In this document: positions 40,247 to 44,136 of the stretch, one piece after another | How the letters are laid out: each line of letters opens with the position of its first letter | Numbering within the stretch: position 1 is the stretch's first letter | Origin: an uncultured delta proteobacterium | Lineage (GTDB): Bacteria > Myxococcota_A > Polyangia > Fen-1088 | Length of the DNA: 64,000 bases | Reading direction: 5' to 3' | Assembly (NCBI GenBank): GCA_963737265.1 | Contig: CAVTRY010000011.1 | Span: 768,001 to 832,000, forward strand | Made by a program: the position numbers and the translations under genes | The notes under the pieces: generated by a model | The model's input: the letters and a program-made list of their open reading frames with translations, nothing else | What the model was told of the DNA's origin: nothing | Database searches by the model: none

Positions 40247-40254
<8 letters not shown>

Positions 40255-41437
40255 ACTTGTAGCGGAAGAGCTTCATGCGTGGGGCTCCTGACACTTCGAA
40301 GAAGAAGCCGAATTCGAAGTTCACGAAGCCATGGCCAGCCTCGACCAGTTTATGGGGTGGGTTGAGGAAAGGCTGCGCCTCTTTGAAGGCTTCGACGGCG
40401 GTGTCGTCGAGGAAGTCCAAGCCGCAGGTGTGTTCCACCGAAACCTTGTCGAGCGAGCCGTCCGATTTCAGATTGACCTTGAGCAAGGTGTAGCGGTCTT
40501 CGGCGCCGTAGATCTTTCCCGTTGGATCGCGACGCTGATATTCCTCGGCGGGCTTCCAGTGATCCCGTACCCGTTCCTTCACCCGATTGAAAAACGTCGC
40601 ATAGACCCAGCGCTTGGCATTGAGAGCCGTCTCGCCACCGTCGTCCACGTCGGCCAAGTGATCCTGCGTACCGCTGCCCAGAGCGCGCGCGAGCTGTTGT
40701 TCCGACGGCACGAGTCCATAGAGGCCCGGCTGCGCCCCCGGCTCGGTTTCGGTTTCGTTCCGCGGCGCCGGCCTCGGCGCGCCGCTGCCGGCGTGCGAGA
40801 ACGCGCCGTTGGGATCGCTTGGCATTTGTTCTTCGCTGCCGGGCTGATCCTCCTGTCCAGTTTCGCCGGCCCGTGGACGCGACATCCTTTTTTGCTCCGC
40901 CGGCATGCGCATCGCCAGCGGCCCTGGCGACGCGGGCGCCTCCGAAGGATTAGGGGTCAGGGCCGGCGCGTTTCGTTTGTTGGGCTCAACCTCGCCGGTG
41001 TGCCGCTGTTGCGAGTTGGGGTCGAATTTTCCATAGCGCTTGGTTTCCTTCTCGACCCAGGAATCGTACTCGGCGGCGTAGCGGGCCTCATCGGGCCGAC
41101 GCTCGTCGCGCGGGCGTGGCAGGTCGACGACCTGGCCGGGCGCCTTGATCGCTTCCTCTTCCTTCTTGAGCTCTTCTTTCTTGGCCTTCTCTTCCTGGTG
41201 TTCGAGGTCGGCGATGATCTTGCGCGCGGTATCTTCGTCCACCGTACTGACCGAGATGGGCTCGGCGCGGGCCGCATCCTCGCGCCGTCTCGCCTCGATG
41301 TCGGCCTGGCGCGGAGCCCAGAAATAGAGCGCGACGCCCACGACCAGTCCGACCTCGGCGTGAATGACCAACGCCAGCGCAATCCATCGTAGGATGGAGG
41401 CGCGCTTGCCGCGCTTGGGTCGGTCGGTGCTGGCCAT
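40247..41437 (-). CDS. TonB-family energy transducer
   Basis: N-terminal TM with His (LVIH), Pro-rich spacer, and TonB_C-like C-terminus (GLDFLDDTAVEAFKEAQPF). Confidence 0.8.
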
Positions 41438-41499
41438 GGGAAACCTTCGGCTCTTAGCACACTATTCTAGCCGTCTACCGCAATCTGCAACCAGGACCA

Positions 41500-42077
41500 G
41501 GGTGCCTCCCTGAAACGGGGGCCCCAGCCGGGGGCTCGGTGAGGTAGCAACTTCTGGCGGAGTGCCGCCGAAAACGCAGATATGGAACAGCGAGGAACGG
41601 AGAAACAGAGACAGGATGACTTTACTGGGCAAATTATCGCCGCCTGCATCGAAGTCCACCGTCACCTCGGTCCCGGGCTGCTTGAGTCGGCCTACGAGCA
41701 CTGCCTGGCGCGCGAGCTAGGCCTGCGTGGATTTCGCACGCAACGTCAGGTCGCGATTCCTCTGCAGTACAAAGGCATTGACCTCGACTGCGGCTATCGC
41801 CTCGACCTCATGGTGGAAGGCCGTTTGGTCATCGAAGTCAAGGCGGTAGAGCGGTTGCTTCCTGTCCACTTGGCACAGGTCATTACCTATCTCAAGCTCC
41901 TACGACTGCCGGTGGGCCTGCTCGTCAATTTCCACGTCCCCGTACTTCGCGAGGGTCTCCGCCGCCTCTCAACCCAACCCGTGATCCCTCTGGTCCTCCG
42001 TTCCTCCCTGTTTTTCCCTCCGATCCCACCTGCGCGGGGCGAGGTGAAGCCCCAGCCCCCATTTCAGGGAAGCACCC
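41500..42077. mobile_element. non-autonomous TIR element (MITE/cassette-like, 578 bp) carrying a GxxExxY gene; 9-bp TSD
   Basis: TIRs GGGTGCCTCCCTGAAACGGGGGC (41500-41522) and GCCCCCATTTCAGGGAAGCACCC (42055-42077) are 21/23 complementary. CCAGGACCA sits directly on both sides (41491-41499 and 42078-42086). Confidence 0.8.
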
Positions 42078-42097
42078 CCAGGACCAGCATCACCTGA
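41582..42097 (+). CDS. GxxExxY protein (PD-(D/E)XK nuclease-like)
   Basis: LGPGLLESAYE, YRLDLMVE, IEVKAV and GLLVNF motifs. Confidence 0.93.
   Translation: MEQRGTEKQRQDDFTGQIIAACIEVHRHLGPGLLESAYEHCLARELGLRGFRTQRQVAIPLQYKGIDLDCGYRLDLMVEGRLVIEVKAVERLLPVHLAQVITYLKLLRLPVGLLVNFHVPVLREGLRRLSTQPVIPLVLRSSLFFPPIPPARGEVKPQPPFQGSTPRTSIT
41586..42012. repeat. inner 25-bp inverted repeat enclosing the GxxExxY core
   Basis: AACAGCGAGGAACGGAGAAACAGAG (41586-41610) and CTCTGGTCCTCCGTTCCTCCCTGTT (41988-42012) are 22/25 complementary. Confidence 0.8.
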
Positions 42098-43325
42098 CGA
42101 CGGGATTCTGGAATGGCACACGGACGGAAAGCGCCAGCGCCCGGCCGGGCGGCGAGAACGGCGCGGCCCGCCTGACCGCGGCCATCGCTTCCTCGTCGAA
42201 TTCGATAAATCCCGCGGACTTGACCACCTCGATGCGTCCGGCCAGGCGTCCATCCGCGGCCACGACGAACGCGAGAATCGTCTCGCCCTGTTCGAGCATC
42301 AAGGCCAGGTGCTGCGGAAACCGCAAAAACCGATCGATGCGCCGCCGGATATCAAGCTCGTGGTGGGCACGTAGACGTTGGTTGGCGTCGTCGCCGGAAT
42401 TTTCAGCGGCCCCAGCACCATGAGCTCCCATCGGGGACGGTGCGCTTCCCTTGGAGAAAACCGCGACCGCCCCGGGACCCGCGCCGGAGCCGCGCCCGAG
42501 ATTGCCGTTCTTCGGCCCGGGCGCCGAAGCAGCCGAGAAATCCATCCTGCCCGGGTGCACGTCGTCCGAAAGCAGCGGTGCCGAGCGCGAATCACGCGCC
42601 GGCCCTTCCTGGCCGACGTCAAAACGACGATCGCCTCGCTCGGCATCGAGCGGCCCCGAACCGCGAACCACGCTCGTTCCGGATGCCGCGAGCCTGGGCT
42701 TTTCATCGGACGGCAGAACTACGCGGTCGTTCTCGTCGAGCTCATCCGCGGGCAGAGCCATCACGGGACGACTCTCTGCATGCAACAGTTGGGTGCGCGC
42801 CAGATCGCCGACGCCGACCGAAGGCTCGCGCCGTTCGGCTTGCCTTGAGCTGGCGGTTCTCGCCGTGCGCTCATGCTCGGGCTCATAGAGCCGCGCGCCG
42901 TTGGTCAGCCGTTCGTGCATCGTCGAGCGATCCAAACGAAAGGCCGGCGCAATCGTCTTTCCCGTGCCGATCCCCTGATCCGGCGCTGGAGCTCGCTCCC
43001 CGACGAGAATTCCGGCGCTGGCGCGATCGCTCGGATCCAAAGCGAAGACGTCACTCGATTCGCCTTCGCCGGTCGCAACGGACAAAGACTCGGACGGCAA
43101 CTTCGAAGGCGGTACGAGATCGACCCAAATCGGCGGCGTGGCGTCGACTTCGCCAAGGCTGCAGGGCGGTGACGGCTTCGGACTCGCCGCGCGTGCCGCG
43201 CGCCACAGAGGCAAAACCGCGGCAACGACGAACAGGCCATGAGCTCCGAGCGAAAATGCGATCGCACCCGCCAGTCCAGCGTTGGCTCGCGACCTTGTCC
43301 TGTGCGCTGCGCCCTGGATCCGCAC
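42090..43325 (-). CDS. TonB-family protein
   Basis: TM with SxxxH (SLGAH), low-complexity spacer and TonB_C (KSAGFIEFDEEAMAAVRRAAPF). Start approximate. Confidence 0.72.
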   Translation of the reverse strand: MRIQGAAHRTRSRANAGLAGAIAFSLGAHGLFVVAAVLPLWRAARAASPKPSPPCSLGEVDATPPIWVDLVPPSKLPSESLSVATGEGESSDVFALDPSDRASAGILVGERAPAPDQGIGTGKTIAPAFRLDRSTMHERLTNGARLYEPEHERTARTASSRQAERREPSVGVGDLARTQLLHAESRPVMALPADELDENDRVVLPSDEKPRLAASGTSVVRGSGPLDAERGDRRFDVGQEGPARDSRSAPLLSDDVHPGRMDFSAASAPGPKNGNLGRGSGAGPGAVAVFSKGSAPSPMGAHGAGAAENSGDDANQRLRAHHELDIRRRIDRFLRFPQHLALMLEQGETILAFVVAADGRLAGRIEVVKSAGFIEFDEEAMAAVRRAAPFSPPGRALALSVRVPFQNPVVR

Positions 43326-43374
43326 GACGTCCTTCCCTAGAGTACCACGCACCCATGGACCAGACCGGAGCCCG

Positions 43375-44136
43375 ATGACTACGCCCCGCACGACCGCGCC
43401 CACCCGCGACAGAGCGGAACACGACCTGCTGCACGAAGTTGGCCGCGCCGTCGCACACTTCGACCTGATTTCAGCCGGGGATCGCATCATGGTCGCGCTT
43501 TCCGGCGGCAAGGACAGCTACGCCTTGTTGCTCTTGCTTGAAACCCTGCGCCGCCGGGCGCCCGTCGAATTCACGCTGGTTGGCGTGCATCTCGACCAGG
43601 CTCAGCCCGGCCACGATCCGGCGCCTCTTGCCGGCTGGCTGACCACGCACGGCTTCGAGCACCTCATCGTGCGTGAAGACACCTACTCGATCGTGAAGGA
43701 AACTGTCCCCGAGGGGCGGACCCCGTGCTCGATGTGCGCGCGTCTCCGCCGCGCCATTCTCTACCGTGCCGCGGACGAGCTCGGTTGCAACAAGATCGCC
43801 CTCGGACATCACCGGGACGACGCACTTGAAACCCTGCTGCTCAATCTATTTTTCGCGGGAAAGATCGCATCCATGCCGGCGCGCCTGACCAGCGACGACG
43901 GCGCGCACGTTGTCATTCGCCCGCTGATCTACTGCGCGGAAAATGAGCTGGCGGACTTCGCGGCCAGCAGAAATGTTCCGCTGCTGCCGTGCAACCTGTG
44001 TGGGTCGCTGCCAAACGCGCAACGCAAACAGATGAAAACGCTGCTCGACCGGCTCGAAACCGAACACCCGAACCTTCGCCAAACCATGCTGGCGGCGCTC
44101 GGGAACGTGACACTGAGCCACCTGCTGATCAAGTAA
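43375..44136 (+). CDS. ttcA: tRNA 2-thiocytidine(32) synthetase
   Basis: SGGKDS PP-loop, CSMC, GHHRDD, IRPL and CNLCGS motifs. Confidence 0.93.
   Translation: MTTPRTTAPTRDRAEHDLLHEVGRAVAHFDLISAGDRIMVALSGGKDSYALLLLLETLRRRAPVEFTLVGVHLDQAQPGHDPAPLAGWLTTHGFEHLIVREDTYSIVKETVPEGRTPCSMCARLRRAILYRAADELGCNKIALGHHRDDALETLLLNLFFAGKIASMPARLTSDDGAHVVIRPLIYCAENELADFAASRNVPLLPCNLCGSLPNAQRKQMKTLLDRLETEHPNLRQTMLAALGNVTLSHLLIK

Follow-up and report, generated by a model that had tools for sequence, protein, structure and literature searches.

An element of 578 bp that holds no transposase gene was analysed in a window of 64,000 nucleotides from an uncultured delta proteobacterium (GenBank assembly GCA_963737265.1, contig CAVTRY010000011.1, positions 768,001 to 832,000; coordinates given without a contig label refer to this window). 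The element occupies positions 41500–42077 on the forward strand and was interpreted as a shell of the ISKra4 insertion sequence (IS) type that encloses a cassette with a GxxExxY gene. It is bounded by terminal inverted repeats of 23 nt at 41500–41522 (forward) and 42055–42077 (reverse), which were found to be complementary at 21 of 23 positions (91%) with the repeat finder, as described in an original prediction made from the sequence alone. The sequence CCAGGACCAG is present twice, at 41491–41500 and 42078–42087, both in the reading of the window and in the repeat-finder output. The original prediction had offered readings of 9 and 10 bp for this exact duplication; the 9 bp reading is correct (CCAGGACCA, at 41491–41499 and identically at 42078–42086) and the 10 bp reading is not, the tenth base, G, being the first base of the element. 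Since the repeat finder returned 13 direct-repeat families of at least 9 nt in the same 1.2 kb stretch, the duplication in the window alone is not above chance; it was taken as real because the genome-wide set of copies carries perfect, differing duplications. By the gene coordinates, the flanking genes would stand 65 bp apart if the element were taken out together with one duplicate, which agrees with the predicted spacer of about 65 bp.

The open reading frame (ORF) of the element spans 41582–42097 on the forward strand and encodes 171 residues, of which residues 13–128 form the GxxExxY (PDDEXK_3) domain. It scored 140.2 bits against TIGR04256 (GxxExxY; cut-off 35) and 139.3 bits against PF13366 (cut-off 22). 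As proposed, the frame crosses the right inverted repeat, and its stop lies 20 nt beyond the element. It had also been described as the only ORF; it is the only one with a family match, and further short open frames overlap the 578 bp unit, ORF 41582–42097 being the only one that was tested. The 579 bp family consensus contains no stop codon inside the element; relative to this consensus the window copy has a deletion of 1 nt (one G) after residue 129, and metagenome contigs have the extra G behind position 41968. A second, nested inverted repeat had been overlooked in the original prediction. Its purine-rich 5′ arm (41586–41610, forward) overlaps codons 2–10 and its 3′ arm (41988–42012, forward) lies downstream of the domain, so that the two arms (25 nt, 88%) bracket the GxxExxY domain; they are paired in both the minimum free energy and the centroid RNA folds. 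The neighbouring genes are both on the reverse strand. Of the two tonB-like genes between which the element had been placed, the right-hand one (42090–43511) encodes a TonB C-terminal domain that passes the curated TonB thresholds, while the left-hand one (40247–41437) is only weakly TonB-C-like and falls under both cut-offs (20.1 bits versus 22, and 24 versus 27.1). A promoter-like TTGCAG-N15-TAGAAT of the left-hand gene adjoins the left duplication and is conserved in relatives.

Copies of the unit were searched for by BLASTN in its own genome (G000; 25 contigs, 6.55 Mb, 63% G+C, estimated contamination 7.6%). The 44 high-scoring segment pairs were resolved into 35 two-ended and four partial copies, which are 93–99.5% identical and in which homology breaks off exactly at the inverted repeats. 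Their flanks are unique and are located on 12 contigs. A perfect direct repeat, different for each copy, was present at 32 of the 35 two-ended copies (9 bp, with one of 10 bp); 29 of these were obtained at the first cut and three after a boundary correction of 1–2 nt. The remaining three comprise two older copies with two mismatches and one copy without a repeat (C20:7328). The proposed search for further copies with other duplications was thus positive, and the different perfect 9 bp duplication at each copy demonstrates transposition by a 9 bp staggered cut. Independent contigs from soil metagenomes break at 41500 and at 42077/8, and their loose ends correspond to the flanks of other copies. 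The complete unit was found in only one of the 41 genomes searched. An open frame of at least 150 residues spans 23 of the 35 reconstructed insertion sites; such frames are common at 63% G+C, and the count is therefore no guide to whether genes are avoided as targets.

Two unusual arrangements were noted among the copies. At C17:62354–63520 two copies stand in tandem with one GCGCCACGG between them and the same 9-mer outside both (three in all), which could have arisen when another copy entered the already duplicated target, or else by tandem duplication. The copies at C20:14118–16133 and C23:162554–164571 each hold an IS4-family IS of 1.43 kb (PF01609; ends CATAGGCATTAACCC; about ten copies in the genome). 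The two inserts are at mirror-image positions, 24–34 nt from the left end in one copy and from the right end in the other, with 11 bp duplications, so that the palindromic sequence near the ends of the element may be a favoured target. As a partner transposase for the element this IS was rejected, its ends being unrelated and its duplications being 11 bp in length.

The insertion site was compared with the homologous locus of relatives, as the original prediction had suggested. In four of these (G010, G002, G008 and G001) homology to the left flank extends up to the insertion point, where a single CCAG[T/A]NCCAG is present. The flanks are 74–77% identical, the right-hand TonB gene is absent and the next gene is the one that follows the TonB gene in the window. 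The single target sequence supports insertion, at a distance only. The TonB gene 42090–43511 is missing at the homologous locus in all six relatives examined, in which the left gene is followed by about 170 bp and then by a homologue of the next gene of the window (43282–44136).

Insertion sequences with related ends were identified by a whole-genome fuzzy search for the 23 nt end with up to six mismatches. Outside the copies, only two related ends were found in G000, at C20:66979 and C20:69076; they face each other and have four mismatches each. They bound an IS of 2,120 bp (C20:66979–69098) flanked by a duplication of 8–9 bp, GGAAAGCG(G). This IS contains an uninterrupted ORF of 466 residues, which scored 256.9 bits against NF033572 (ISKra4 family transposase; NCBIfam cut-off 205), and a passenger ORF of 141 residues without an NCBIfam or Pfam family match above noise. 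An IS with matching ends, which the original prediction had proposed to look for, is therefore present in the form of an ISKra4-family member, its ends matching those of the element (e.g. the left repeat, 41500–41522) at 19 of 23 positions rather than being identical. Ten full copies of another IS, which is ISKra4-like and 1,782 bp long, were also found (e.g. G000 C2:48037–49818), and it likewise starts with GGGTG. Its ORF of 576 residues has NF033572 as its best NCBIfam match at 178 bits, under the cut-off of 205, and has no Pfam match at E ≤ 0.001; a perfect 9 bp duplication flanks seven of the ten copies. Neither of these two ISs carries a GxxExxY gene.

Closer ends were found in the relative G009, where they match at 21–22 of 23 positions and are located at contig ends, one of them being followed by the start of a transposase-like ORF. 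G009 also shares the right subterminal sequence with the mini-element, including CCTCGCCCCGC adjacent to the right inverted repeat, which occurs at one of its IS end types. The location at contig ends is typical of an unassembled multicopy IS. With the C20 transposase protein as query no match was obtained in any of five relatives (G009, G005, G003, G004 and G018), all of which are fragmented assemblies, so that this is not evidence of absence. A solo end in G018 (C51:4563) was considered as an autonomous copy and rejected, its neighbours being ordinary genes (SGL, GDSL lipase). A scan of the whole genome collection with the end pattern gave five stretches, three in two known relatives and two lone matches in unrelated phyla, the latter being about the number expected by chance.

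For analysis of the target sites, the flanks of all copies were aligned in the orientation of the element and TTGACA was scored at a minimum of four of six positions. Of 34 right flanks, 14 have a TTGACA-like hexamer whose first base is at +17 from the right junction, where the background is 0–5 for any one offset; the binomial P is 4.8e-12, or about 4e-10 when corrected for the 74 offsets. TANNNT is present at +40/+41 in nine of 34 flanks. A smaller hexamer peak (six of 34) was observed on the left side. The 1,782 bp IS has the same +17 peak in seven of 20 flanks (P = 1e-6), and the C20 IS has TCGACA at +17 on its left side. In the window the hexamer is CTGACG (42094–42099, forward; four of six positions identical to TTGACA), which starts 17 nt from the right junction and is followed by no convincing −10 sequence. 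In the available text of Guerillot et al. (2014; PMC3942029), a number of ISKra4-group members, like TnGBS and ISLre2, are described as inserting 13–17 bp upstream of σA promoters.

Taken together, the ends, the duplication length and the target geometry indicate that a DDE transposase of the ISKra4 type acts on the unit in trans, and the 578 bp unit is very probably a transposase-less cassette that was mobilized in this way. This corresponds to the first of the two alternatives in the original prediction, a cassette mobilized in trans that carries a GxxExxY gene. In the mechanism we propose, the 23 bp ends would be derived from an ISKra4-family IS with a DDE transposase of the Mutator superfamily. 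This transposase, supplied in trans, would bind both ends and insert the unit by a 9 bp staggered cut, with a preference for sites 16 bp upstream of a σ70-type −35 hexamer, and the outcome would be a recent burst to about 39 copies. The source of the transposase could be the intact 2,120 bp IS at C20:66979–69098 or a more closely related one that has since been lost or is missing from the assembly, and the cargo would be a complete GxxExxY gene cassette that arrived with its own older inverted arms. We infer that the C20 transposase recognizes the ends of the mini-element and that GxxExxY is dispensable for movement.

Several observations weigh against this mechanism. The C20 IS, which is the only full-length IS with related ends in G000, differs from the element at four of 23 positions in each end, and the acceptance of the mini-element ends by its transposase is presumed. 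In G009 the closer IS is not assembled, and a search with the C20 protein did not recover its transposase. Each of the 73 end sequences of G000 belongs to a copy that bears GxxExxY, with no cargo-free shell among them, so that the cassette may have a helper role. Of the 34 right flanks, 20 have no −35-like motif, and that of the window copy is a weak one. The empty site was observed only in species that are 74–77% identical in the flank, all of which lack the right-hand gene, and the contigs of four soil-metagenome runs (one study) contain no empty-site joint across the element, such contigs being unable to show absence.

In terms of classification, the unit qualifies as a non-autonomous ISKra4-family IS derivative of the cassette type and is a known kind of element. 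Mobile insertion cassettes (MICs) combine IS ends with a passenger gene and have no transposase, as in IS231 and MIC231 of Bacillus cereus and in ISfinder usage, whereas miniature inverted-repeat transposable elements (MITEs) are non-coding. The element shares with both the IS-type inverted ends, the target duplication, the lack of a transposase, the multicopy state and a presumed mobilization in trans. It resembles a MIC in carrying a passenger ORF; as a MITE it would fit in ends, duplication and copy number but not in its coding capacity (a domain ORF of 129 residues). It differs from both in being nested, since what it carries is a structured hairpin cassette in its own right. With the ISKra4-family ISs (p-MULT 4, Mutator-superfamily DDE transposases; PMC3942029) it has in common the related 23 bp ends, the 9 bp duplication seen in the resident ISKra4-like IS and a target site that lies about 16 bp upstream of a −35-like hexamer; unlike them it has no transposase gene and is only 578 bp long. 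Members of the family can carry extra genes, and the available text of PMC3942029 mentions additional genes of unknown function in four ISKra4 elements; no transposase-less, gene-carrying derivative was found in the available parts of the literature on the group. As interpreted here, the element would be a clean natural example of a transposase-less ISKra4-group cassette with promoter-proximal targeting, by which about 39 copies of a nuclease gene, reading outward without an internal stop, would have been placed just upstream of host promoters. This should be of use in IS annotation and in understanding how genes of the GxxExxY type become multicopy.

The GxxExxY family is large and uncharacterized. 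The function of GxxExxY/PDDEXK_3 is listed as unknown in PMC3424549, and none is given in the available text of PMC8934634. In an alignment of 27 sequences residues G30, G32, Y38, D75, E85, Y103 and F117 are invariant and E35 and K87 are conserved in at least 90%; the protein thus has the GxxExxY motif, and with it the catalytic D...ExK core that belongs to the PD-(D/E)XK fold. An AlphaFold2 model was obtained with a predicted local distance difference test score of 94.6, and its best structural matches are all restriction-endonuclease-like. The best VIA-align match is Cas4 SSO0001 (Z = 7.3, root-mean-square deviation 3.3 over 96 residues), a Z value of a kind that is common. Foldseek gave no match at E ≤ 0.001, the best being at E = 7e-3 (Cas4 SSO0001, Hjc, AF1548), and a sequence search of the PDB with the GxxExxY protein gave no match at E up to 1. 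We assign to the protein a restriction-endonuclease-like fold in general terms and the predicted catalytic triad, and nothing beyond this is claimed. An uninterrupted match to nearly the whole domain is present at only 20 of the 39 element loci, the gene in the others being disrupted by frameshifts or deletions. The ratio of nonsynonymous to synonymous substitution rates (dN/dS) is about 0.3–0.4 within the genome, on very few changes, and 0.12–0.19 against the homologues of G009; the gene is therefore constrained between species and not visibly so within the burst.

A part for this protein in the movement itself was considered in two forms. It could be an accessory nuclease that acts together with the DDE transposase, for example as a second-strand cutter like TnsA, which would account for the amplification of cargo-bearing copies only. 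In Tn7, the second strand at the transposon ends is cut by TnsA. The presence of the cassette at all 39 element loci without any empty shell, the retention of the D-E-K catalytic residues and the purifying selection between species (dN/dS 0.12–0.19 versus the G009 homologues) are in line with such a role. Both ISKra4-type ISs of G000, however, produce the same 9 bp duplications and target geometry without a GxxExxY gene, frameshifts have broken half of the copies, for which intact ones could nevertheless provide the protein in trans, and a single founder that happened to hold the cassette explains the pattern equally well; we consider an accessory role improbable. The second form, in which GxxExxY is itself the transposase of the 578 bp unit and acts on the outer 23 bp ends, has in its favour that the gene is the sole family-assigned ORF of a multicopy unit. 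We know of no strand-transfer activity for the PD-(D/E)XK fold. An IS with a DDE transposase has ends homologous to the outer ends, homologues of the gene in G005 and G009 have no outer ends, the complete unit is confined to one of 41 genomes and the target preference is a hallmark of the ISKra4 group according to the available text of PMC3942029, so that this form appears very improbable. The self-mobility through the outer ends that the original prediction had raised as its second alternative is not sustained: the only other related ends in G000 enclose an ordinary DDE transposase, which in spirit is the outcome that the prediction itself had named as refuting, and about half of the GxxExxY frames are broken. 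That the repeats are an artefact of assembly or binning, or segmental duplications, is suggested by the estimated contamination of 7.6% and by the pair C14:364642/C14:367409 within an 853 bp segmental repeat, yet is next to impossible given 32 different perfect duplications, unique flanks on 12 contigs and independent metagenome contigs that break exactly at the element boundaries with loose ends identical to the flanks of other copies.

The inner inverted repeat was followed separately from the shell. The homologues of G005 and G009 (82–91% DNA identity) have the leader, ORF and tail in common with the element, including the inner arms, and do not have the outer ends; the cassette is therefore older than the ISKra4 shell. 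In the G005 homologue a double change from G:C to A:T keeps the inner-arm pairing. The sole other GxxExxY gene of G000, located upstream of recA (L022), has quite different arms of 33 nt at the same positions. The family was detected in 17 of 151 sampled genomes of the phylum, from which 28 loci were tested for arms and 25 were scored, three being too near the locus end. A bracketing repeat of 18–50 nt is present at 17 of 25 loci, with z values of 8 to 28 versus shuffles, and none is present at the other eight. When orthologues and same-genome copies were counted once, there were 13 different arm sequences, each composed of tandem subrepeats of 6–9 nt. The survey of GxxExxY flanks that the original prediction had advised thus revealed inverted arms at most loci, of a kind that differs from the outer ends. 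A search of 41300–42300 against Rfam gave one match at chance level (E = 0.39) and no rRNA match. In the available literature on GxxExxY, PDDEXK_3, PF13366 and the intervening sequence (IVS) protein, no account of such arms or repeats was found.

The arms of the recA locus (TTCACCACAGAG...) recur in relatives as ORF-less intergenic hairpins of 110–130 bp. Arms of this kind (type 1) were counted in forward and reverse orientation, the reversed-pattern controls all being 0, and amounted to 157 in G004, 119 in G009, 64 in G002, 48 in G008, 40 in G010, 24 in G003, 22 in G005, 16 in G000, five in G001, two each in G011 and G006, one in G007 and 0 in G012. GxxExxY genes are present in exactly the eight genomes with 16–157 arms and in none of the five with 0–5, the genomes being kin. 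At the recA locus of the gene-free genomes there is a scar (G001), two different deletion remnants (G007 and G011) or nothing (G012 and G006), that is, at least three different states of decay. The arms of the local gene are genome-specific repeats in three further families of the phylum as well, with 28 in G135, 89 in G114 and 79 in G037 versus 0–2 in four non-cognate genomes each. A hairpin present in G002 is missing from the orthologous spacer in G008, where the flanks are 93–94% identical, and in G010 and G001; at this one clean presence/absence site no target duplication was found for the ORF-less hairpin.

These observations would fit a tentative and, as a whole, rather unlikely proposal. 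GxxExxY genes, and in parallel the genes of the four-helix IVS protein, may be residents of an undescribed class of hairpin repeats, in which the gene lies in the loop of a long hairpin with arms of 25–50 nt built from tandem subrepeats of 6–9 nt, and, in hairpins without an ORF, the same lineage-specific arms multiply to tens of copies per genome. The nuclease would recognize and cut the arms, as an extruded DNA hairpin or cruciform or as an RNA stem, and would thereby drive or maintain the spread, as a PD-(D/E)XK analogue of the system formed by REPINs (hairpins of repetitive extragenic palindromic sequences, REPs) and RAYTs (REP-associated tyrosine transposases). The element of the window would then be such a cassette, captured by an ISKra4-type shell and amplified 39-fold. 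A REPIN/RAYT-like role of GxxExxY is possible, and the association of gene and arms is correlative only. The broader idea of the original prediction that GxxExxY genes are mobile units fails for the outer ends and finds a correlative counterpart in the arms that the genes have of their own, which are dispersed as hairpin repeats.

Against a movement of hairpins by GxxExxY, the genomes compared are related. G003 and G004 hold many internally deleted units of type 2 (the GxxExxY type of the element) of about 180 bp without an intact type-2 gene (in incomplete assemblies), and G009 has many type-1 arms with no type-1 gene found in its assembly. Genes of PF05635 (the four-helix IVS protein) in the genus have like arms at six of 11 loci, so that the nuclease is not the only kind of gene with this architecture. 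RAYT/Y1 transposases were rejected as hairpin mobilizers, strong Y1_Tnp matches having been obtained in only one of 13 genomes. That genome, G010, has seven Y1_Tnp (IS200-like) loci (e.g. C29:25223–25582), six at 142.7 bits and one at 140.9 bits; elsewhere in the genus there was no match or a weak one (21–28 bits).

Two known systems are closest to the inner unit. The 23S rRNA intervening sequences with an ORF in Coxiella and Leptospira (PMC4990558) likewise have a small ORF within terminal inverted repeats of about 25–30 nt that can form a stem, which is cut by RNase III according to the available text of that source, and the PF05635 IVS ORF family of the present genus has similar tandem-subrepeat arms at six of 11 loci. 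Unlike these, the window copy lies between protein-coding genes and not within a 23S rRNA gene at helix 9, 25 or 45, its ORF encodes a PD-(D/E)XK nuclease rather than a four-helix bundle, its arms are inside the reading frame and there are dozens of ORF-less hairpins. With REPIN–RAYT systems, as described in the available parts of PMC3337134, PMC5581495 and PMC8049555, the inner unit shares a gene of low copy number that is inherited vertically and has inverted repeats on both sides, and ORF-less hairpin forms that number in the tens, are specific to their genome and appear to be almost missing from genomes that have lost the gene. The differences are a PD-(D/E)XK nuclease gene in place of a Y1/HUH transposase gene, tandem-subrepeat arms of 25–50 nt in place of GTAG-type REPs the same architecture in an unrelated ORF family, and an activity on the arms that is a predicted one. 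The GxxExxY hairpin cassette is closest in architecture to the ORF-bearing rRNA intervening sequences and in population behaviour to REPIN–RAYT, and is a member of neither. The inner repeat gives the GxxExxY family a concrete hypothesis, that of a hairpin-directed nuclease tied to a repeat population, and the arms link the family to an old unsolved question, the origin of the ORF-bearing rRNA intervening sequences.

Further arrangements of hairpins were recorded. In G000 an intact GxxExxY hairpin cassette lies ahead of recA, and behind it is a derivative of this cassette with an internal deletion (C22:199895–200076), both within C22:198300–200080 (L022 and L122). The only type-2 arm match without mismatches outside the element copies is at C14:19280–19360 of the same genome (L123), an ORF-less hairpin with about 40 nt between its arms; four looser matches with 2–3 mismatches were found in addition. 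In G003 and G004 the deleted type-2 units of about 180 bp (L004 and L024–L035) are part of a longer repeat with REP-like palindromes of the form GGGAACCCTnnnAGGGTTCCC at its borders, and at these loci no clear target duplication was visible. G004 also has a multicopy PF05635 gene at 13 loci (e.g. C237:15799–16098), most with one or two in-frame TAG codons and eight of the 13 with exactly one; the copies represent either a pseudogene amplified as a unit or a gene in which TAG is read through. At the two loci of G004 that were examined (L148 and L156), the PF05635 genes are bracketed by arms with GGCTTCA subrepeats.

The genome of the window is rich in other insertion sequences, with members of the IS3, IS21, ISL3, ISAs1, IS91, ISAzo13 and IS1634 families in 4–23 copies each. 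A reverse transcriptase of the group II intron type (RVT_1 and GIIM) is present in about four copies, for example at C7:298536–300524 and C17:97175–99169.

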